Notes: generated by a model from the sequence alone, not told the origin. Numbered from the stretch's first letter, positions 3,892-61,543 are shown. The stretch is 64,000 nucleotides of DNA from Candidatus Latescibacterota bacterium (GCA_030658975.1 JAUSBL010000112.1:14248-78247); one strand, 5' to 3'. Translations and numbers: made by a program.

Positions 3892-4080
3892 CGAGGCGTG
3901 ACGCGGGTACGCCAAAATGACGTAGTTGGAACTGCCTGAAATCTGACCGCCCGGCGACCTCCGCCATATCTCCATTGATAACAACATGATACCCGTCGTC
4001 CCGCGGGGCCGGCGCGTGGCACGCCCCTTGATGGGCTCTCTGCGGCTACGTAAATCCAACGCTGCGGAAGGAAGGCGATC

Positions 4081-7330: not shown

Positions 7331-9250
7331 ATGGCCCAGTACTCCCTGACCCTGCCCGACGGTTCCGTCCAGAGCGCCGAGGCCGGCGCCTCGTTCCGCG
7401 ACGTGGTGGGCGGGATCGGCGCGGGGCTGCTGCGCAACGCGCTGGCCGTGACCCACGCCGGGCGCCACTACGCCCTGGACGACGCGGTGCCGGGAGACGG
7501 GTCCCTGGCCGTGATCACGCGCGAATCCCCCGCCGGCCTGGACGCCCTGCGCCATTCGGCCGCGCACCTGCTGGCCTGGGCCGTGCAGGACCTGTTCCCG
7601 GAGACGAAGTTCGCCTTCGGCCCCCCGGTGGAGAACGGCTTCTACTACGACTTCGACCGCGAGCAGAACTTCACCGACGAGGACCTCGCGCGCATCGAGG
7701 CGCGGATGATCGAACTCGCCGCGACCAGGACGCCCGTGGTGCGCCGGGAGATCGACGCGGCGCAGGCCCGCGCGCTGTTCGCGGCCCAGCCCTACAAGCT
7801 CGAGCAGATCGAGAGCCTCGGCGACGCGCGTCTGTCGGCCTACGTCATGGGCGGTTTCACGGACCTCTGCGAAGGGCCGCACGTCCCGGACACCTCCGAC
7901 CTCAAGGCCGTCAAGCTGCTGAACATGGCCGGCGCCTACTGGCGCGGCGACAGCTCCAACCGCCAGCTGCAGCGGATCTACGGCACGGCCTTCTTCAAGA
8001 AGAAGGACCTCGACGCCCACCTGCAGATGCTCGAGGAGGCCCGCCGCCGCGACCACCGCCGCCTCGGTCGCGAGCTGGACCTCTACGGCATCATGGACGA
8101 GGCCGGGCCCGGCCTGTCGTTCTGGTTCCCGCGCGGCGACATCCTGCGCGACGAGATCATCACCTACTGGAAGCAGGTCCACCGCCGCGACGGCTACGTC
8201 ACGGTGACGACCCCGCACATCTCCCAGGCCGATCTCTGGGACACCTCCGGCCACATGCAGTTCTACCGCGAGAACATGTACGTGTTCGAGCAGGACGGCC
8301 GCCCGCACGTGGTCAAGCCGATGAACTGCCCCGGCCACATCCTGATCTACAAGCGCAAGAAGCGCAGCTACCGGAACCTGCCGGTGCGCTACGCCGAGCT
8401 GGGCACCGTCTACCGCGCCGAGCTGAAGGGGACCCTGCACGGGCTGATGCGCGTGCGCGGCTTCACCCAGGACGACGCCCACATCTTCTGCACCCCCGAC
8501 CAGCTCGAGCACGAGGTGAACAACGTCCTGGTGCTGACCCGCGAGATCCTCGGCGCCTTCGGCTTCAAGGAGTTCAAGGTCGAGCTGTCGGTCCGCGACC
8601 CCCTGAACAAGGACAAGTACGCCGGCACGGACGAGGAGTGGGAGATGGCCGAGCGCGCCCTGGTGCGCGCCATCGACGCGCACGGGTTCGCCTACACGCG
8701 CGAGGAGGGCGAGGCGGTCTTCTACGGCCCCAAGATCGACATCAAGCTCATCGACGCCCTGGGCCGCAAGTGGCAGGCCACGACCGTCCAGTTCGACTTC
8801 AACCTGCCCCGTCGCTTCGAGGTCAACTACGTGGACCAGGACGGCCAGGAGAAGTACGTCTACATGGTGCACCGGGCGATCATGGGCTCCCTGGAGCGCT
8901 TCATCGGGATCCTGACCGAGCACTACGCCGGCGACTTCCCGCTGTGGCTGGCGCCCGAGCAGTGCCGGATCCTGTCCGTCAGCCGCGACCAACACGCCTA
9001 CGCCGTCGAGGTCGCCGCCCGTCTGACCGCCGCCGGCCTGCGGGCCCACGCGGACGTCCGCGAGGAGAAGATCGGCCACAAGATCCGCGACGCCGAGACC
9101 ATGCGCGTGCCCTACATGCTGGTGGTGGGGGGCAAGGAGCAGCTGGCCGGGTCGGTGGCCGTCCGCACCCGCCACGGGGGGGACCAGGGGGTCCAGGAAG
9201 TGGGGGCCTTCGCCGCCGCCAGGCTTGACGAAGTGGCCCGCAAGCTGTAG
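7331..9250 (+). CDS. thrS: threonine--tRNA ligase
   Basis: TGS/second additional domain, class II core and anticodon-binding domain. N-terminus MAQYSLTLPDGSV. Confidence 0.95.
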   Translation: MAQYSLTLPDGSVQSAEAGASFRDVVGGIGAGLLRNALAVTHAGRHYALDDAVPGDGSLAVITRESPAGLDALRHSAAHLLAWAVQDLFPETKFAFGPPVENGFYYDFDREQNFTDEDLARIEARMIELAATRTPVVRREIDAAQARALFAAQPYKLEQIESLGDARLSAYVMGGFTDLCEGPHVPDTSDLKAVKLLNMAGAYWRGDSSNRQLQRIYGTAFFKKKDLDAHLQMLEEARRRDHRRLGRELDLYGIMDEAGPGLSFWFPRGDILRDEIITYWKQVHRRDGYVTVTTPHISQADLWDTSGHMQFYRENMYVFEQDGRPHVVKPMNCPGHILIYKRKKRSYRNLPVRYAELGTVYRAELKGTLHGLMRVRGFTQDDAHIFCTPDQLEHEVNNVLVLTREILGAFGFKEFKVELSVRDPLNKDKYAGTDEEWEMAERALVRAIDAHGFAYTREEGEAVFYGPKIDIKLIDALGRKWQATTVQFDFNLPRRFEVNYVDQDGQEKYVYMVHRAIMGSLERFIGILTEHYAGDFPLWLAPEQCRILSVSRDQHAYAVEVAARLTAAGLRAHADVREEKIGHKIRDAETMRVPYMLVVGGKEQLAGSVAVRTRHGGDQGVQEVGAFAAARLDEVARKL

Positions 9251-9358
9251 ATTGGTCCCGCGCCCGGAGATCCGGGCGCTACATCGCTAGCCAAGCAGAG
9301 GCCGGTCCTCTCACCGTTTTGCCCCCTTCGCGGCGGGAACGGTTGTGCGTTCTTCGTA

Positions 9359-9383
9359 GCGGACCGTCATGTCCGCTTTTTTT
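9359..9383 (+). terminator. rho-independent terminator or attenuator in the infC leader (GCGGAC-N6-GTCCGC followed by T7)
   Basis: 6-bp GC stem with a 6-nt loop followed by TTTTTTT. It lies between the thrS stop (9250) and the infC SD (9412). Confidence 0.6.
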
Positions 9384-9424
9384 GTGTGGCGCCGCGCCGC
9401 ACGGTCTTTTCAGGAGGTCAGGCG

Positions 9425-9946
<522 letters not shown>

Positions 9947-23747: not shown

Positions 23748-23763
23748 TGGCATTCTCCTTGCT
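23748..23763 (+). promoter_or_regulatory. sigma-54-type (-24/-12) promoter TGGCAT-N5-TTGCT upstream of the EPS gene cluster
   Basis: Matches the TGGCAC-N5-TTGCW consensus (GG and GC spaced correctly), about 80 nt upstream of the UDP-sugar dehydrogenase start. An NtrC-family activator is encoded in the same cluster (28220). Confidence 0.45.
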
Positions 23764-28219: not shown

Positions 28220-29656
28220 ATGTCCGCCCAGCTGCTCGTGGTCGATGACCAGGCCTCCATCCTGCAGTTCCTGCGTCAGACCCTCGCCCACGAGGGGCAT
28301 GTCGTCCACACGGCGGCCAACGGCGAAGAGGCCCTGGCGGCCGTCCACGAGCAGATCCCCGACCTGGTCCTGCTGGACATGGTCCTGCCCGATCGCCACG
28401 GCCTGGAAGTCCTGCGCGAGATCCACGCCCGGTTCCCGCGGATGTGCGTGATCCTCATGAGCGCCCACATCGACCTCGAGACGGCGGTCGACGCCATGCG
28501 CGGCGGCGCCTTCGACGTGATCCGCAAACCGTTCAAGATCGATCAGCTGCATCTGGCCATCCGGCGCGGCCTCGCCGCGACGCGCGACGCCGCCGAACTC
28601 GCCGCCCTGCGCCGGCGGGACCAGGGCTTCGCCAGGACGCCGGGCATGGTGCTGAGCACGGCCCCTGCGATGCAGGAAATCTACGCCACGGTCCGCAAGA
28701 TCGCGCAGGGGGAGAAGACCTCCATCCTGATCGAGGGCGAGTCCGGCGTGGGGAAGGACGTGCTGGCCAACCTGATCCACGCCAGTTCGCCGCGCAGCGA
28801 CAAGGCCTTCCTGGAGATCAACTGCGCCGCCCTGCCCGAGAAGCTGCTCGAGAGCGAGCTGTTCGGCCACGAGCAGGGCGCCTTCACCGACGCCGGACAG
28901 CTCAAGCAGGGGCTGCTGGAACTCGCCCACCACGGCACGGTGTTCCTGGACGAGATCGGCGAGATGTCCGTGACCCTGCAGGTGAAGCTGCTGCGCGTCC
29001 TGGAGCGTCAGGTCTTCCGCCGCGTGGGCGGGCTCAAGGACATCACGGTGGACGTGCGCCTCATTTCCGCGACGAACCGCGACCTGTCGGCCATGGTGCG
29101 CGCCGGGACGTTCCGGGAGGACCTCTACTACCGGCTCAAGGTGGTCCCTTTGCGTATGCCGTCGCTGCGGGAGCGGCCCGAGGACATCCTGCCCCTCGCG
29201 GATCACTTCCTGCGGATCTACGCGCTGCAGTTCCACAAGCGCCTGACCGGTCTGACCCCGGACGCCGTCGGCGCCCTGCTGGCCTACCCCTGGCCCGGGA
29301 ACATCCGCGAACTGCGCAACGTGATCGAGCGCGCCGTGCTGCTGGGGGAGGGGGAGGCCCTCGACGCCGTCCAGTTGAATTTGCCCGACGCCCATTTGCC
29401 CGATGCACAGGGGGTGTCGCCCGTTCCGAGCCAGGATCTCTCCGCCCTGCTGGGCGGACCCCTGCCGGCGGCCGGGTTGCGGTTGGAGGAGACGCTCGCC
29501 GCGGCCGAGGAGCGCTGCGTGCGCCAGGCGTTGGTCCAGGCGAGCGGCAATCAGACCCGCGCGGCCGAACTGCTGGGCATGAATCGCGATAAGTTGCGAT
29601 ACAGATTGAAGATGTATAAAATCAGTGAGGATGTGCGTGAACCTGCGGACAATTGA
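28220..29656 (+). CDS. sigma-54-dependent response regulator, NtrC family (REC, AAA+ and Fis-type HTH)
   Basis: REC domain (LLVVDDQ...DLVLLDMVLPD), Walker A GESGVGKDVLA, GAFTDA, C-terminal HTH AAELLGMNRDKLRYRLKMY. Confidence 0.9.
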   Translation: MSAQLLVVDDQASILQFLRQTLAHEGHVVHTAANGEEALAAVHEQIPDLVLLDMVLPDRHGLEVLREIHARFPRMCVILMSAHIDLETAVDAMRGGAFDVIRKPFKIDQLHLAIRRGLAATRDAAELAALRRRDQGFARTPGMVLSTAPAMQEIYATVRKIAQGEKTSILIEGESGVGKDVLANLIHASSPRSDKAFLEINCAALPEKLLESELFGHEQGAFTDAGQLKQGLLELAHHGTVFLDEIGEMSVTLQVKLLRVLERQVFRRVGGLKDITVDVRLISATNRDLSAMVRAGTFREDLYYRLKVVPLRMPSLRERPEDILPLADHFLRIYALQFHKRLTGLTPDAVGALLAYPWPGNIRELRNVIERAVLLGEGEALDAVQLNLPDAHLPDAQGVSPVPSQDLSALLGGPLPAAGLRLEETLAAAEERCVRQALVQASGNQTRAAELLGMNRDKLRYRLKMYKISEDVREPADN

Positions 29657-31329: not shown

Positions 31330-31683
31330 CTAGTGGATGGGCACCCGCGCGGCGAATTCATCGAGGAACGGCAGGTGCCAGGATTCGCCGGTCAACGCCT
31401 TGGCGAAGCCCAGCGCGGAGATTCCCAGGCAGGTCAGCAATCCGACCAGGTGCAGGACCACCGAGAGCAGCATGCCGAGCAGCGGGATGCGGCCGAGACT
31501 GTGGTCCACGATCCCCAGCACGAGCAGCAGCACGACCTCGGCCGCGAGCAGGGTGAATCCCTGCCGGCAGTGACGGGCCAGGAACTCCCCCTTGTTCTCC
31601 ACCATCAGGATGGGCAGCACGACCAGCGCGCTGACGTAGCAAGAGGCTCCCCACCAACGTTCCGTGACGGTCGGTTCGTTCAT
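31330..31683 (-). CDS. DUF4870-family small membrane protein
   Basis: WWGASCYVSALVVLPILMV...FHCRQGF-like pattern, three TM helices. Confidence 0.55.
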   Translation of the reverse strand: MNEPTVTERWWGASCYVSALVVLPILMVENKGEFLARHCRQGFTLLAAEVVLLLVLGIVDHSLGRIPLLGMLLSVVLHLVGLLTCLGISALGFAKALTGESWHLPFLDEFAARVPIH

Positions 31684-31845
31684 GGCGTTCCTTTCGGGGC
31701 ATTCGGCGACGTCGGTAATGTAGCGGATCGACGCGCCGAAGAAAAGCGCGGAACGCGCCGTGGCTTGTGACCCGACAGGAATGATGCTAGCCTGCGCCGA
31801 TGCCGTTTGTAGCGGGTTCCGGGTGACCAGGAGGCGTCAGTCCGC

Positions 31846-32244
31846 ATGGGGAATCGATGGTGGGCTCAACGTAAGGCGATCGAGGCTGACCGGATCCTGG
31901 AAATGGTGCCGCAGACCCTGGTCGACTCGCGCGTCGACGGCGTCTCGCAGGTCGTCCTGCTGGAACCGCGCTTCCGCAGCGGTCCGCTCGCGCGCTGGCT
32001 GCAATCCCGCCTGCCGCCCGAACGCGCTTACATCGAAGTGCGCCTCGAGGCCTTCGGCAGCACGATCTGGCGCCTGCTGGACGGCCGCCGCAGCGTCGCC
32101 GACATCATGCGCGGGTTCGTGGCCGCGCATCCGGATCAGGCCGACAGCGCCAGCGAGCGCGTCTGGCTCTACCTGCAGGGATTGGAGCGGCACGGATTCG
32201 TGAATTTCCCGCAGGCGGCCACTCCCCCGGCCCACGTTGAATAA
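31846..32244 (+). CDS. PqqD-family / RiPP-recognition-element (RRE)-like protein, orphan
   Basis: SD CAGGAGG 8 nt upstream. C-terminal 80 aa (LEAFGSTIWRLLDGRRSVADIMRGFVAAHPDQADSASERVWLYLQGLERHGFV) fits the PqqD/RRE winged-helix pattern. Confidence 0.55.
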   Translation: MGNRWWAQRKAIEADRILEMVPQTLVDSRVDGVSQVVLLEPRFRSGPLARWLQSRLPPERAYIEVRLEAFGSTIWRLLDGRRSVADIMRGFVAAHPDQADSASERVWLYLQGLERHGFVNFPQAATPPAHVE

Positions 32245-32307: not shown

Positions 32308-32384
32308 TGGTACCCCAGACAGGGCTCGAACCTGCGACCCCCGGTTTAGGAAACCGGTGCTCTATCCAGCTGAGCTACTGGGGC
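32308..32384 (-). tRNA. tRNA-Arg (anticodon CCT)
   Basis: Reverse complement reads GCCCCAGTAGCTCAGCTGGATAGAGCACCGGTTTCCTAAACCGG...GGTTCGAGCCC...CCA. Confidence 0.8.
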
Positions 32385-47402: not shown

Positions 47403-48704
47403 TTAATCCATCGCCGACCAGAAGTCAATGAGACCTTCCTCGTCGGGGATGTGGAGGCGGTGGGGCTGGTCGGCCGCGATGGCGGCGAGGTCGAGTCCGT
47501 CGAGCGTGAGGTTGTCGCTGTTGAACATCCGCGGCGGCAGCAGGACGTCGCGCACGGGCGCGGCCGGCAGTTCGGTCAGGGCGCGCCGGATGTCGCTGCC
47601 GGAGAGGAGTCCGGCCACGGTCACGCTCGCCCCGTAGAAGCGGTTCTCCACCCCCACCAGCTCGATCCTGGGCAGACCGGGGCGGTCCAGCGCCGGCAGC
47701 AGGCGTTGCGCGAAGGCCAGCTCGCCGAGCTTGCCGGTCATCACCGTCACCGGGCGGGTCGGCAGCTTGCCGTGCGCGGCGCGCTCCTGCAGGGCCTCGC
47801 GCCAGGCCTGCTCCAGGCCGCGGGTCAGGCCGATGCCGTTGTCGAGCTGGGCGAAGTCCCCGTACTGGTCCTGCGGCGGGAAGGGTCGCCCGGTCAGCAG
47901 GTAGAACTCGTCGCTGAGGTGGACGAACGTCGTGCCGGCCTGCGCGCGGCAGCGCTGCTGCCAGACGCCGACCAGGTCGATGGTGGCCTCGGCGATCGCG
48001 GGGGTGACCGGGTCGAGCTTCGTCAGGCCCTCGCGGTGGGCCGACAGGCCGACCGGCACCACGGCCAGCGTCTCCACACCCGGATGCAGGGCGAACAGGT
48101 CGGCGATGGACTGGTCCAGCACGGGCCCGTCGTTCCAGCCCGGGCACAGCACGACCTGGGCGTGCACGGTGATGCCGCCCTCGACGAGCTGCCGCAGGAT
48201 CGCCAGCACGTCGATGCGCCGCTTGATGCCCAGCATGCGCGTGCGCACGTCGATGTCGGTGGCGTGCACCGAGACGAACAGCGGCGTCATCTTCTGGCGG
48301 ATGACGCGTTCGAGGCCGCGACGCCCCAGCGAGGTCAGGGTGATGTAGTTGCCGTACAGGAAGCTGAGCCGGTAGTCCTCGTCCTTGACGTAGATGCTCG
48401 GGCGCATGCCCTGGGGGTTCTGGTCGATGAAGCAGAAGACGCAGTCGCAGGCGCAGGTCTTGAACTCCATGGCGGCGAAGCAGCTCATGACCTTGTCCAG
48501 CGCGTAGGGCTCGAAGGCCACGCTGTTCACGGCGCCGTCGCGGCTGGCGATGGTCAGGGTCATCTTCACGCCGTGGGGCATGTAGTAGTAGAGGTCGAGC
48601 ATGTCCTCGACGGGCTGGCCGTCGACCGCGGTCACGGCGTCGCCCTCGCGCCAGGCGTGGGCGCGGTCCAGGGGCGACGGGAAGGGCTGGATCAGCTGGA
48701 TCAT
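47403..48704 (-). CDS. DUF512 / TIGR03279-type radical-SAM-like Fe-S protein with N-terminal PDZ-like domain
   Basis: CxxxCxxC cluster motif (CACDCVFC) in a DUF512-like context, N-terminal PDZ-like region. Conserved neighbour of der in several phyla. Confidence 0.65.
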   Translation of the reverse strand: MIQLIQPFPSPLDRAHAWREGDAVTAVDGQPVEDMLDLYYYMPHGVKMTLTIASRDGAVNSVAFEPYALDKVMSCFAAMEFKTCACDCVFCFIDQNPQGMRPSIYVKDEDYRLSFLYGNYITLTSLGRRGLERVIRQKMTPLFVSVHATDIDVRTRMLGIKRRIDVLAILRQLVEGGITVHAQVVLCPGWNDGPVLDQSIADLFALHPGVETLAVVPVGLSAHREGLTKLDPVTPAIAEATIDLVGVWQQRCRAQAGTTFVHLSDEFYLLTGRPFPPQDQYGDFAQLDNGIGLTRGLEQAWREALQERAAHGKLPTRPVTVMTGKLGELAFAQRLLPALDRPGLPRIELVGVENRFYGASVTVAGLLSGSDIRRALTELPAAPVRDVLLPPRMFNSDNLTLDGLDLAAIAADQPHRLHIPDEEGLIDFWSAMD

Positions 48705-48795
48705 GGGGTCCGTCCGGCTCGGGTGGCGGCCAGTTCGCCAAGGCAGGATAGGAAAACGGGCCGCGTCGCCGCAACCCGTTCCCCGTCGATCTGGT

Positions 48796-48871
48796 TGGAG
48801 CGGGCTACCGGGTTCGAACCGGCGACCGCCAGTATGGGAAACTGGAGCTCTACCAACTGAGCTAAGCCCGC
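48796..48871 (-). tRNA. tRNA-Gly (anticodon CCC)
   Basis: Reverse complement GCGGGCTTAGCTCAGTTGGTAGAGCTCCAGTTTCCCATACTGG...GGTTCGAACCC...CCA. Confidence 0.85.
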
Positions 48872-48927
48872 CCCAGACTTGGCAAGATAGTCCGGCTTCA
48901 CGGGCGCTGTCAAGCGCGCTGCGGCGG

Positions 48928-49872
48928 TCATGCGGCGCCCGCACAGGCACGTGCCAGGAGCCGCGCCGCCTCGTCCCGCAGGGCCGGGTCGTCCGGCGTG
49001 CCGCAGAGCAGCCGGGGCTGGGCCCGGAACCAGGTCTGCTGCCGCTTGGCGTACTGGCCGGTGCGCAGTTCCACCGTTGCCAGCGCCGCCGCGAGGTCCG
49101 ACTCGCCGGCGAGGTGGGCGGCGAGTTCGCGGTAGCCCAGCGTGCGCAGGCCCGGGCAGTCCGCGCCGTGCCGCGCCACCAGACCGGCCGTTTCCTCCAG
49201 CCAACCCGCCGCGAGCATGGCCTGCAGACGCGCGGCGATGCGCGCGCGCAGGTCCTTGCGGTCGCGGTCGAGCACCACGAGCGGGTACTCCCAGCCCAGC
49301 GCGGGGTCCGGTCGACGGGCGGCCATCAGGTCGCTCATGGACTCCCCCGCCAGCCGGCGGATCTCCAGGGCGCGCTGGCTGCGGTAGCGGTCGCGCGCGT
49401 GGATGCGCGCCCAGCTCGCGGGATCCTCGGCGAGCAGGCGCGCGCGGATCTCGTCGTCGGGCAGCGCGTCCAGCTCGTGACGGACCTGGGCCAGGGCGGC
49501 GGGATCGGCCGGCAGCGTGAACAGCCCGTCGCGCACCGCGGAAAGGTAGAGGCCCGCGCCGCCGACGAGCACGGGGAAGCGGCCGCGCGCGCGGATCCCG
49601 GTCGCGACGCGCTGGAAATCGTCGCGGAAGCGGCGGGCGGAATAGCGCTCCTGCGGCGGCAGGAAATCCACGAGGTGGTGCGGGCAGGCGGCGAGCTCGA
49701 CGGCGTCGGGCTGCGCGGTGCCGAGCCGCAGGCCGTGGTAGATCTGACGGCTGTCGAGCGAGACGATCTCGATCGGGAAGCGCGCGGCCAGCGCGACCAC
49801 CAGGGCGGTCTTGCCGACGGCGGTCGGGCCGGCGATCACCGGGCAGATGTCGTGGGCCGCGGCGTCGCCCAC
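48928..49872 (-). CDS. miaA: tRNA dimethylallyltransferase
   Basis: P-loop GPTAVGKT, IPT domain. miaA adjacent to mutL as in many bacteria. Confidence 0.9.
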   Translation of the reverse strand: MGDAAAHDICPVIAGPTAVGKTALVVALAARFPIEIVSLDSRQIYHGLRLGTAQPDAVELAACPHHLVDFLPPQERYSARRFRDDFQRVATGIRARGRFPVLVGGAGLYLSAVRDGLFTLPADPAALAQVRHELDALPDDEIRARLLAEDPASWARIHARDRYRSQRALEIRRLAGESMSDLMAARRPDPALGWEYPLVVLDRDRKDLRARIAARLQAMLAAGWLEETAGLVARHGADCPGLRTLGYRELAAHLAGESDLAAALATVELRTGQYAKRQQTWFRAQPRLLCGTPDDPALRDEAARLLARACAGAA

Positions 49873-58805: not shown

Positions 58806-60140
58806 TCAGTTGATGGGTTCCGCCTCGAATGTCGACGCCTCGCAGCCGGTCACCCGGACCCGGACCAGATCGCCGGGCCGGTGGTCGCCGCCGTGCAGCA
58901 GCACCTTGCGGTTGTTCGGGGTCCGCGCCCGCCAGCTGCCGGCGGGACGGCGCGCCTCCGCCTCCACGGCGACCTCCCAGACGGCGCCCGTCTGGGCCGC
59001 GGCCAGATCATCCCAGATCGCGTCCTGGACCGCCATCAATTCGGCCAGACGCTCTTTCTTGGCTTCGGGCGGCACGTCGTCGGCGAGCTTGGCCGCGGGC
59101 GTGCCCGGCCGCTCGGAGTACTTGAAGCTGAAGAGCAGATCGTAGCGGACCTCCCGCACCAACTCAAGCGTCCGTCGGAAGTCCGCGTCGGTTTCTCCGG
59201 GGAAGCCCACGATGATGTCGCCGCTGAAGGTCACGTCCGGGATCCAGCGCCGGGCGGCGGCGACCATCGCCAGGTAGCGGTCCCGGGTGTAGAGGCGCTT
59301 CATCCGGCGCAGGACGGCGTCGCTGCCGCTCTGGGCCGGCACGTGGAGCCAGGGGCAGGTCTTGTCCAGGGCGGCGATGGTGCGGATCAGGTCGTCGGTC
59401 ATGTCGCAGGGGTGGCCGGTCAGGAAGCGGATCCGCTCCAGGCCGTCGATCTCCTCGAGCCGGCGCAGCAGGCCGGCGAAATCCAGGTCGCCGCTGCGGT
59501 AGGCCGTGACGTTCTGGCCCAGCAGGGTGACCTCCCGGCCGCCGCGTTCGACGATCCGGCGGATCTCCGCCTCGATGAGCAGGGGCGCCTTCTCGCGCTG
59601 CGGGCCGCGGGTCTCCGGCACGATGCAGTACGTGCAGCGGTAGTCGCACCCCTTGTGGATCGTGACCAGGTGGGAGTTGTTGGTCGGGTACGCCTCCGGC
59701 GGCGCGACGTAGTGGACGTCGTCGCGGTGGCCGACCGCTACCGGCGTCGGGGCCGGCTCGCCCTGCAGGAGGCCGTCCAGCAGGTCGGGCAGACGGTCGT
59801 ACTGGTCGACGCCGGCGACCAGGTCGGGGCCCCGGCCGCCCGCGACGAAGCCGCCCTTGAGCCGCTCGGCCATGCAGCCGCACACCCCGACGATGTCGGC
59901 GTTGGCCAGACCGCGCCGGCGCAGGCTGCGCAGTTCGCCGATGCGGCTGAGGATCTTGTGCTCGGCCAGGTCGCGCACCGAGCAGGTGTTCAGCAGGACG
60001 ACTTCGGCCTCCAGCGGCGAGTCCGAGCGGGCGTAGCCGCGCGCGGCCAGGATGCCGTGGATGGCCGAGCTGTCGTAGGCGTTCATCTGGCAGCCGTAGG
60101 TCTCGATGTGGACCCGGACGCTGCCGCGCTCGGCGCTCAT
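58806..60140 (-). CDS. miaB: tRNA-2-methylthio-N6-dimethylallyladenosine synthase MiaB
   Basis: UPF0004 (VHIETYGCQMNAYDS), radical SAM CDYRCTYC, TRAM domain. Confidence 0.85.
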   Translation of the reverse strand: MSAERGSVRVHIETYGCQMNAYDSSAIHGILAARGYARSDSPLEAEVVLLNTCSVRDLAEHKILSRIGELRSLRRRGLANADIVGVCGCMAERLKGGFVAGGRGPDLVAGVDQYDRLPDLLDGLLQGEPAPTPVAVGHRDDVHYVAPPEAYPTNNSHLVTIHKGCDYRCTYCIVPETRGPQREKAPLLIEAEIRRIVERGGREVTLLGQNVTAYRSGDLDFAGLLRRLEEIDGLERIRFLTGHPCDMTDDLIRTIAALDKTCPWLHVPAQSGSDAVLRRMKRLYTRDRYLAMVAAARRWIPDVTFSGDIIVGFPGETDADFRRTLELVREVRYDLLFSFKYSERPGTPAAKLADDVPPEAKKERLAELMAVQDAIWDDLAAAQTGAVWEVAVEAEARRPAGSWRARTPNNRKVLLHGGDHRPGDLVRVRVTGCEASTFEAEPIN

Positions 60141-61543
60141 CGGCCACCCCCTCTCCCTGAAGCCGCCACGGCGGCCGGGGACGGCACGAGCCCCCTGCTG
60201 CGCTGGACCACGGTGGCGCACAGCAACCCCCCGCGCCGGCCGTCCGGACGCGCCAGGACGAGGTCCCCCGGCACCCAGCCGTCGGGCACCAGGACCGTGG
60301 CGAAATTGCCCGTCGTGGCGGGCAGCCAGCCGTCGGCGCGCCGGGGGGATTCCACGACCGCCTCCTGCCAGGCGCCGAGCAGGCCGTCCTCGAAGCGCCG
60401 CTGCAGGTCCCGACCGGCAGCGGTCAGTCTGGCGGCCCGCTCGCGCACGACAACCGGCGGCACCGGCGTCATCGCGGCGGCCGGCGTCCCCGGACGGGGC
60501 GAGAACGGGAACACGTGCAGGTAAGCCAGGGGCAGGGAAACCGCCAGGTCCAGGGTCGCCCGGAAATCCGCCTCGGTCTCCCCCGGGAAGCCGGCGATCA
60601 CGTCGGCCCCGATGCCGATCCCCGGCCGGGCGGCGGCCGCGGCCTCGACCGCGCCGACGACGGCGGCGGCGGTGTAGGGGCGCCGCATCCGGGCCAGGAC
60701 GCCGTCGGCGCCGCTCTGCAGGGAGACGTGCAGGTAGGGCTGCAGGTGCGGACGCTCCGCGTAGAGCTTCAGCAGGGGCTCCCCCAGGTCGTCGGGATGC
60801 AGGCTGCCCAGGCGCACCCGCAGGTCCGGGAAGCGCTCCAGGATCGCCGTCAGCAAGGCGGGCAGGCCGGCTGCGGGCCCGACGTCGCGGCCGTAGGCGC
60901 CGAGGTGGACGCCCGTGAGCACGATCTCGGGCACGCCGCGCGCCTGCAAATCGGCGATCTCCGCCAGGATCTCCTGCGCCGCCCGGGAACGCGAGCGCCC
61001 CCGGGCGCGCCAGACGAGGCAGAAGGCGCAGCGCAGGTCACAGCCGTCCTGGATCTTGACGTGGGCGCGGGTGCGGTCGGCGCCCGAGAGGCGCGTTTGC
61101 GGGCCGGGCAGTGGCCGCGCGCGTTCGGGCCGGCCGACCTCGAGCAGCGGGGCGTCGGCGGCCAGCACGCGGGGCAGCCAGTCCGCGATGGCGTCGCGTT
61201 CGCCGACGCCGAACACGCCGTCGACGCCCGCGAGCGCGGACAGGGCCGCGGGCTGGGCCTGGGCGTAGCAGCCGGTGACCACGACCTTGGCCGCGGGGTT
61301 GCGGCGGCGCGCCTCGCGCAGGGTCTGGCGGGCCTTCTGGTCGGCGCGGGCGGTGACGGTGCAGCTGTTCAGGACGTAGACGTCGGCGGCGGCGTCCCAG
61401 TCGACGATCTCGCAGGCGAGACCATCCGCGGGGCCGCCGGACAGGCGGGCCATCATCGTTTCGGTGTCGTAGCGGTTGAGCCGGCAGCCGAGCGTGTGGA
61501 AGGCCACACGCACGGGCCGACGCCGTCCGTCCTGCCCGTCCAT
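60137..61543 (-). CDS. MiaB-family methylthiotransferase, MtaB/YqeV-like
   Basis: VAFHTLGCRLNRYDTE, radical SAM CDLRCAFC, C-terminal TRAM. Start overlaps the miaB stop. Confidence 0.8.
   Translation of the reverse strand: MDGQDGRRRPVRVAFHTLGCRLNRYDTETMMARLSGGPADGLACEIVDWDAAADVYVLNSCTVTARADQKARQTLREARRRNPAAKVVVTGCYAQAQPAALSALAGVDGVFGVGERDAIADWLPRVLAADAPLLEVGRPERARPLPGPQTRLSGADRTRAHVKIQDGCDLRCAFCLVWRARGRSRSRAAQEILAEIADLQARGVPEIVLTGVHLGAYGRDVGPAAGLPALLTAILERFPDLRVRLGSLHPDDLGEPLLKLYAERPHLQPYLHVSLQSGADGVLARMRRPYTAAAVVGAVEAAAAARPGIGIGADVIAGFPGETEADFRATLDLAVSLPLAYLHVFPFSPRPGTPAAAMTPVPPVVVRERAARLTAAGRDLQRRFEDGLLGAWQEAVVESPRRADGWLPATTGNFATVLVPDGWVPGDLVLARPDGRRGGLLCATVVQRSRGLVPSPAAVAASGRGGGR

Follow-up and report, generated by a model that had tools for sequence, protein, structure and literature searches.

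Matches to PqqD or to the RiPP recognition element (RRE) are widely used as class-independent markers of clusters for peptides synthesized ribosomally and modified post-translationally (RiPPs), and the closest described relatives of the protein discussed here are the discrete RREs of lasso peptide pathways (B1 proteins; TbiB1, PDB 5v1u, and TfuB1, PDB 6jx3) and PqqD itself (PF05402, TIGR03859; PDB 3g2b and 5sxy). Our subject is a gene for a 132-residue protein with this domain in a stretch of 64,000 nucleotides, hereafter the window, from Candidatus Latescibacterota bacterium (GCA_030658975.1, JAUSBL010000112.1:14248-78247), where it diverges from a gene for a 117-residue membrane protein. A first-pass annotation of the window had taken the protein for an orphan RRE that may act as a peptide chaperone for a distal RiPP cluster or have some non-RiPP role. 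We suggest that it is instead an accessory of peptide uptake and catabolism, linked to peptide transport and not an orphan RiPP chaperone, a reading to which, from comparative sequence evidence, we would give an even chance.

The window protein is only 16-22% identical to the lasso B1 proteins, and it is set apart from them by an extra N-terminal helix, by an insert of ~20 residues between strands β2 and β3, by membership of a basic family, and by the absence of lasso B2 or C genes or a precursor near it. From PqqD it differs by the same insert and by the transporter context of its family. A parallel of another kind lies outside the bacteria. GLMP is a glycosylated lysosomal membrane protein of the luminal side, unrelated to the window protein. 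In its pairing with MFSD1 it is likewise a small non-transporter protein tied to a peptide transporter, and the partner of the Bacteroides members of our family is an MFSD1 homologue (PMC11252000). Unlike GLMP, the window protein has the RRE fold, lacks a predicted transmembrane segment or signal peptide, and belongs to a family whose tie to transporters is one of gene arrangement. We regard the family as a known fold in an undescribed, non-biosynthetic genomic role, and the window copy as its atypical, transporter-less member.

An RRE fold in a broad, unnamed family

The first-pass annotation was right about the gene pair and its domain. Both open reading frames (ORFs) have coding-type GC content at third codon positions (GC3; Table 1), and the 132-residue protein scores 27.8 bits against PF05402 (cutoff 23.4, E 3.2e-6) over residues 65-119. 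An AlphaFold2 (AF2) model from 15 close homologues was poor, with a predicted local distance difference test score (pLDDT) of 53; rebuilt with 100 diverse family sequences, the model reached a pLDDT of 89.1 and a predicted TM-score of 0.76. Defining the RRE fold structurally, as a three-stranded antiparallel sheet followed by three helices and superposable on solved RREs, we find that the modelled protein is a complete RRE fold: β1 (residues 27-31), β2 (35-41) and β3 (62-66) are followed by α1 (69-77), α2 (84-94) and α3 (96-115), with further helices at the N-terminus (4-18) and in the insert (47-61), and Foldseek aligns the model with TbiB1 at a target-normalised TM-score of 0.74-0.79. The N-terminal extension noted at first pass proves to be mostly β1 and β2 of the fold; what is really added is the ~20-residue insert and, at the N-terminus, a basic helix that in most of the family is rich in Arg and Trp. 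Because this insert parts β1-β2 from β3, Pfam misses the first two strands, and Pfam and PDB sequence alignments alike start at or just ahead of β3. A single-sequence phmmer search of PDB sequences with the window protein gave noise only, and the family profile found the lasso PqqD chaperone 9x90_B (E 6e-6), TbiB1 (E 7e-5) and PqqD 3g2b (E 5e-4).

A profile search seeded with the window protein, over 1.84 billion cluster representatives (at 50% identity), returned 569 family matches at E<=1e-3, of which 70 reach E<=1e-10; almost all have 110-140 residues and match end-to-end (profile positions ~8-128). PF05402 was matched by 97 of 100 sampled members (E<=0.01). Common to the family are a VP ahead of β1, LLxPRF in β2, (R)WLQPRL in the insert and RVxLDxxGSxxWxxxDGxR over β3 and α1; the insert motif is conserved across family alignments A2, A3 and A4, and in the core L67, W75 and R105, the last in α3, are invariant and G71 nearly so. 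We define the family by an end-to-end match that includes the PRF…WLQPRL insert together with invariant L67, W75 and R105, all of which the window protein has. Members are basic, with a median isoelectric point (pI) of 9.4, and the window protein has a pI of 8.3. Proteins of Lachnospira eligens (WP_012740332) and Bacteroides (WP_186926822) match the profile end-to-end (E 7e-34 and 8e-27) and occur on at least 1000 contigs each, which suggests that PqqD-like orthologues are common in these taxa. No Pfam or NCBIfam model beyond generic PqqD describes the family, which is broad, widespread and unnamed.

Linkage to peptide transporters and a dipeptidase

Family loci were gathered by a metagenome scan keyed on the RWLQPRL motif alone, by exact-protein look-ups and from annotated records, and the neighbourhoods so obtained cover ~20 family lineages. 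In 14 of these lineages (L012-14, L017, L018, L020, L021/L026, L023-25, L027, L028, L031, L032-34, L036, L037, L038 and P0025) a gene for an OPT-family oligopeptide transporter (TIGR00733) lies directly upstream of the PqqD-like gene on the same strand, and on the equivalog model TIGR00733, with its cutoff of 182.5 bits, five of the linked OPTs reach 322-379 bits. Genomes seldom carry OPT genes, and chance cannot account for adjacency in 14 of the ~20 lineages. The OPT stop and PqqD start overlap (ATGA) in L017, L018 and L028, and in L020, L021, L026, L032/L033 and L037 the PqqD-like gene starts out of frame within OPT, with an overlap of 32 nt; these overlaps suggest that the two genes are co-translated. 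In the loci with the longer overlap, the Asp-Glu codons (GATGAA) of the OPT tail supply the ATG of the PqqD-like gene.

Many of the PqqD-linked OPTs (L012, L020, L021, L026, L027, L028, L031, L032/33 and L037) have an acidic tail that is conserved at the C-terminus, …P[LVI][KG]N[AS]G.PDE[PA]APP.AM. It is conserved also where the genes do not overlap (L012, L027, L031), and the PqqD-less OPT paralogues of L021 and L026, encoded on the other strand, lack it. The idea that this C-terminal tail (…NAG.PDEPAPP.AM) is a universal docking peptide was rejected, several PqqD-linked OPTs being without it. Also rejected was a genuine OPT::PqqD fusion in P0025 (524 aa): the linker, ~70 residues rich in Arg, Gly and Pro, resembles out-of-frame read-through of the OPT 3' end, and the apparent fusion is probably an assembly or gene-calling artefact that still shows the adjacency of OPT and PqqD.

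The linkage extends beyond OPT. In three lineages (L030, L031 and L. eligens) the PqqD-like gene is followed directly by one for a PepD-type dipeptidase, that of L031 scoring 597 bits on TIGR01893, and the annotation of the cultured strain L. eligens ATCC 27750 reads OPT (WP_012740333), PqqD family protein (WP_012740332), aminoacyl-histidine dipeptidase (WP_012740331). In Bacteroides finegoldii the PqqD gene begins 6 nt after a gene for a major facilitator superfamily (MFS) transporter homologous to human MFSD1 (PDB 8r8q, E 3e-37), with a sigma-54 regulator and LptE nearby; MFSD1 is a lysosomal dipeptide uniporter (PMC11252000, PMC10990142). An MFS transporter 38% identical to that of B. finegoldii is encoded 2 kb from the PqqD-PepD pair of L030. 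The family is thus tightly linked to a dipeptidase and to peptide transporters of two classes that are unrelated to each other, and no RiPP-type maturase gene was seen beside it in the ~20 lineages examined. Of the two roles offered at first pass, the evidence accordingly favours the non-RiPP one over the distal RiPP chaperone, the conserved neighbours being transporters and PepD. In the full-text literature we found no paper linking PqqD/RRE proteins to OPT or oligopeptide transporters, and the RRE-census literature that we checked makes no mention of a transporter-linked context.

The B. finegoldii locus (L035; NZ_OY725907, 3504-8345) is in a record labelled 'plasmid 5' yet carrying rlmN, pdxA, LptE and SecG. 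Its gene order is sigma-54 regulator, LptE, hypothetical, SecG, MFSD1-like MFS, PqqD, so that the regulator-LptE neighbourhood is as in the window, and a POT-family peptide transporter is encoded 3 kb further on.

From these gene arrangements and from the fold we infer that the protein binds a peptide, what this ligand is and how transport might be affected. The gene would encode a cytoplasmic, basic, stand-alone RRE-fold peptide-binding protein, from a family whose genes are normally co-transcribed with that of a peptide-uptake transporter, usually an OPT and in Bacteroides an MFSD1-like MFS protein. An extended peptide would be held in the canonical β3/α3 groove, as in RREs. This could be an imported oligopeptide, bound for retention, for hand-off to peptidases or for sensing; alternatively, the protein might dock on a cytoplasmic segment of the transporter or gate it. 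The acidic OPT tail is a hint of such docking, though no general solution, since several linked OPTs lack it. With the transporter gene no longer beside it in the window lineage, the protein would work in trans, its transporter being encoded elsewhere.

Several observations weigh against such an accessory role, most of all for the window copy. No OPT, MFSD1-like or PepD homologue is encoded in the 64-kb window (tblastn), so that for this copy the reading is carried by homology only. Four lineages (the window clade, L008-11, L015/16 and L022) have no neighbour of this kind, which means that the PqqD-like protein can persist without an adjacent transporter. The OPT tail might be a docking site, yet L. 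eligens, L017/18, L023-25 and L038 have PqqD-linked OPTs that lack it. A dipeptide of the type carried by MFSD1 is too short for canonical RRE β-strand binding, and binding of peptide or transporter stays putative for every member of the family, the window copy included. Pairwise ratios of nonsynonymous to synonymous substitution (dN/dS, NG86 method) within the window clade are 0.23-0.64, probably overestimates at this GC3, and for the window copy they are rather high with four of the five members compared (0.55-0.64), and 0.31 with L006.

A more far-reaching version of the proposal, which we put forward tentatively and regard as possible though doubtful, is that the RRE fold has a second, non-biosynthetic role: this PqqD-like clade would form a cytoplasmic accessory subunit or peptide receiver of secondary peptide transporters (OPT and MFSD1-like), which would couple uptake with hydrolysis of PepD type or gate the transporter by binding a cytoplasmic segment of it, and the window lineage would have become uncoupled, perhaps working with the conserved DUF4870-like protein. 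A large PqqD-positive clade that follows peptide-uptake operons, and not RiPP clusters, would systematically give rise to false 'orphan RRE' calls, and bacterial OPT and MFSD1-type peptide transport, a little-known field, would have an undescribed component. The interest is mainly in the family-level association, which members in the cultured gut bacteria L. eligens and Bacteroides make testable. For the window, an orphan becomes a member of a definable family, with the prediction that a cognate peptide transporter is encoded elsewhere in the genome.

The window copy and competing explanations

Seven loci (L001-L007) share the window arrangement, with PqqD-like proteins 64-76% identical in global alignment; one member of this window clade is labelled Gemmatimonas by one source. 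Four others (L008-L011, labelled Krumholzibacteriia) have PqqD-like proteins 27-28% identical globally, or 32% by local tblastn, and keep the divergent DUF4870-like/PqqD pair within the larger synteny, shared with the window, of sigma-54 regulator, LptE, holA … apt. In a neighbour-joining tree the nearest relatives of the window clade are OPT-linked, first P0025 and then L017/L018, and these are 41-50% identical to the window protein. In the window itself no OPT or MFSD1-like gene stands directly upstream on the same strand, the upstream neighbour being the divergent DUF4870-like gene. The order in L018 is holA, DUF4870-like (-), tetratricopeptide repeat (TPR) protein (-), OPT (+), PqqD-like (+), and it looks like an intermediate arrangement. 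The simplest history suggested by these gene orders would be an OPT-PqqD operon divergent from a DUF4870-like gene, from which OPT was later lost or moved away; judging from the tree, the window clade and L008-11 may each have undergone this change on their own. Two side observations concern the transporter-less loci. Directly downstream of the PqqD-like gene in L008-L011 is a gene for a 564-aa polytopic membrane protein (L010 3646-5340, -) that has no Pfam or NCBIfam match and no homologue in the window, and the L015/L016 members lie between a divergent ClpB (L015) and a multihaem cytochrome/cytochrome b cluster.

The strongest competitor, which we nonetheless consider unlikely, makes the window protein a functional partner of the DUF4870-like membrane protein, in a membrane-associated two-gene module independent of OPT. 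The first-pass annotation had named this neighbour a DUF4870 membrane protein; that it is a divergently encoded membrane protein holds, and the DUF4870 label falls below threshold, at 13.3 bits on PF09685 (MamF/MmsF-like) against a cutoff of 25 (E 0.087, profile positions 11-103 of 107). Its size is typical and its weak similarity full-length, and 5 of 10 homologues also match weakly at E<=0.1 (best 0.0045). Such homologues adjoin the PqqD-like gene, adjacent and divergent, in L001-L007, L008-L011 and L019 (PqqD-like 34%), and blocks of the intergenic region are conserved. The larger shared synteny could explain this adjacency by descent: the pairing occurs in 3-4 lineages inside it and so may be inherited and not functional. 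In L018 the two genes are 3.4 kb apart, with OPT and the TPR gene intervening, and no DUF4870-like gene lies within 8 kb at the other loci with enough flanking DNA.

The spacer between the two genes bears on a further explanation, in which the protein is a small DNA-binding regulator of winged-helix type that controls the transporter operon or else the divergent gene. The basic charge of the protein would fit, as would the conserved inverted repeat in the spacer (Table 1), yet a regulator agrees poorly with the structural and sequence ranking, and we regard it as improbable. The repeat is itself a candidate operator or hairpin, and on the minus strand it forms a terminator-like hairpin just 5' of the membrane-protein gene. 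The AGGAGG box lies 11 nt ahead of the ATG of the 132-residue ORF. A consensus sigma-70 scan of the 162-bp spacer gave no match and Rfam has no family in it; a sigma-54 promoter that would tie the pair to the nearby NtrC-type regulator was considered and dropped, no consensus having been found.

Very improbable, in our judgement, is an orphan RRE acting in trans, which would bind the leader of a precursor peptide modified by enzymes from elsewhere in the genome. This explanation draws on the true RRE fold, on the PF05402 match and on a faint resemblance to the chaperone models for ScmD, PqqD and GeoRSP. Yet all the specific PqqD-type chaperone models of NCBIfam (ScmD, PqqD, GeoRSP, ApyI, lasso) remain far below their cutoffs, at 22 bits or less against 46-200: PqqD proper (TIGR03859) gives 21.8 bits against 46 and lasso B1 (NF033536) 13.5 against 80, the latter without neighbouring B2 protease or C cyclase genes. 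Defined functionally, an RRE belongs to a cluster with a precursor and a modifying enzyme, and no RiPP-type enzyme family turned up among the 50 ORFs of the window that were scanned against Pfam (GC3-supported ORFs and a few alternative frames) or in the ~20 lineages, where the partners are transporters and a peptidase. Among the same 50 ORFs there is no typical Pfam family of YcaO, lasso B/C, lanthipeptide dehydratase or HPr-kinase-like enzymes and no pqqA, B, C or E, in agreement with the first-pass view that RiPP machinery is missing nearby. Nor is an HPr-rel-A system supported, whose PqqD chaperone would stand beside an HprK-related kinase: no PqqD model of that system is among the NCBIfam matches listed at E<=1. 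The first-pass annotation erred in finding no radical SAM gene in the window: there are three of radical SAM type (Table 1), 15-29 kb from the PqqD-like gene, which by domain architecture look like housekeeping methylthiotransferase and DUF512 types. The apparent commonness of the Bacteroides and L. eligens orthologues and the housekeeping character of the window also speak against this explanation. A last point in favour of the orphan RRE is that the OPT-PqqD pair of L021, L026 and L037 is followed immediately by a MiaB-type radical SAM gene, and that L020 has one further downstream; these genes are of the housekeeping UPF0004 + radical SAM + TRAM architecture and belong to one related group only. 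Their positions are L021 8395-9723, L026 ~8276-9601 and L037 1003-2334, with a BFN-domain nuclease next, and in L020 2988-3686, ~1.9 kb downstream.

Least probable by a small margin, and to us likewise very improbable, is a decaying remnant left by the loss of the adjacent OPT, for which the missing partner gene in 64 kb and a window-copy dN/dS above that of its membrane-protein neighbour would argue, since the ORF is intact with coding GC3 in every member of the window clade, 51 of 132 positions are invariant there with all family motifs included, the ribosome-binding site and spacer blocks are conserved in alignment with related loci, and L008-11 and L015/16 have kept the gene with no transporter beside it, as has L019 (a short contig), where it stands next to only a fragment of a DUF4870-like gene.

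Gene surroundings in the window

Table 1. Features of the locus and radical SAM-type genes in the window (positions counted from its first nucleotide; strand as + or -, a point where none applies).
Feature	Position	Strand	Basis or remark
117-aa polytopic membrane protein gene, DUF4870-like (sub-threshold)	31330..31683	-	GC3 0.89, invariant HCRQGF motif
Divergent intergenic region, 162 bp	31684..31845	.	conserved blocks in alignment with six related loci
Inverted repeat GCGCG-GAA-CGCGC in spacer	31745-31759	.	hairpin scan; largely conserved L001-L005
Tentative -35/-10 pair in spacer	31765-31770 / 31788-31793	.	inference only
AGGAGG box	31829-31834	.	in spacer
PqqD/RRE-fold protein gene, 132 aa	31846..32244	+	GC3 0.84 (coding-type); member of transporter-linked family
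N-terminal basic helix, residues 4-18, addition to RRE core	31855..31899	+	AF2, lower pLDDT 60-83
Strands β1-β2, residues 27-41 (VP… / VVLLEPRF)	31924..31968	+	RRE fold
Family-specific helical insert β2-β3, residues 42-61 (PRF…RWLQSRLPPERA)	31969..32028	+	AF2 helices H47-55, H58-61
β3-α1-α2-α3, canonical PqqD/RRE core, residues 62-115	32029..32190	+	Pfam match 65-119
tRNA-Arg(CCT)	32308-32384	opposite to PqqD-like gene	3' of PqqD-like gene; Rfam match
Radical_SAM_2 + DUF512 gene, adjoins der	47403-48950	-	Pfam
UPF0004 + Radical_SAM + TRAM gene	58806-60221	-	Pfam
UPF0004 + Radical_SAM gene	60137-61543	-	Pfam

The window has a GC content of ~70% and is a housekeeping chromosomal region. By Pfam scan it holds dnaK, thrS, infC, pheST, RNase Y, folD, dxs and recN, along with apt, a LysM-M23 peptidase, an SSF-family (sodium:solute) symporter, PCMT, gpsA, plsY and der, and further miaA, mutL, mutS, LapA/B and rpsA. 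A sigma-54 response regulator, LptE and holA precede the DUF4870-like/PqqD-like pair, and the tRNA gene of Table 1 is the sole Rfam match on the locus. A polysaccharide cluster comprises UDP-glucose dehydrogenase, an epimerase, a Wza-like exporter and a sugar transferase, and is ended by the NtrC-type sigma-54 activator (28220-29656). At 23748-23762 (+), 14 nt 5' of the ORF for UDP-glucose dehydrogenase, the sequence TGGCATTCTCCTTGC differs from the sigma-54 -24/-12 consensus by one mismatch, and a similar one-mismatch site lies at 4017-4031, 5' of dnaK; such matches over the whole window are not above chance, and for the site at 23748-23762 it is the position alone that is suggestive.
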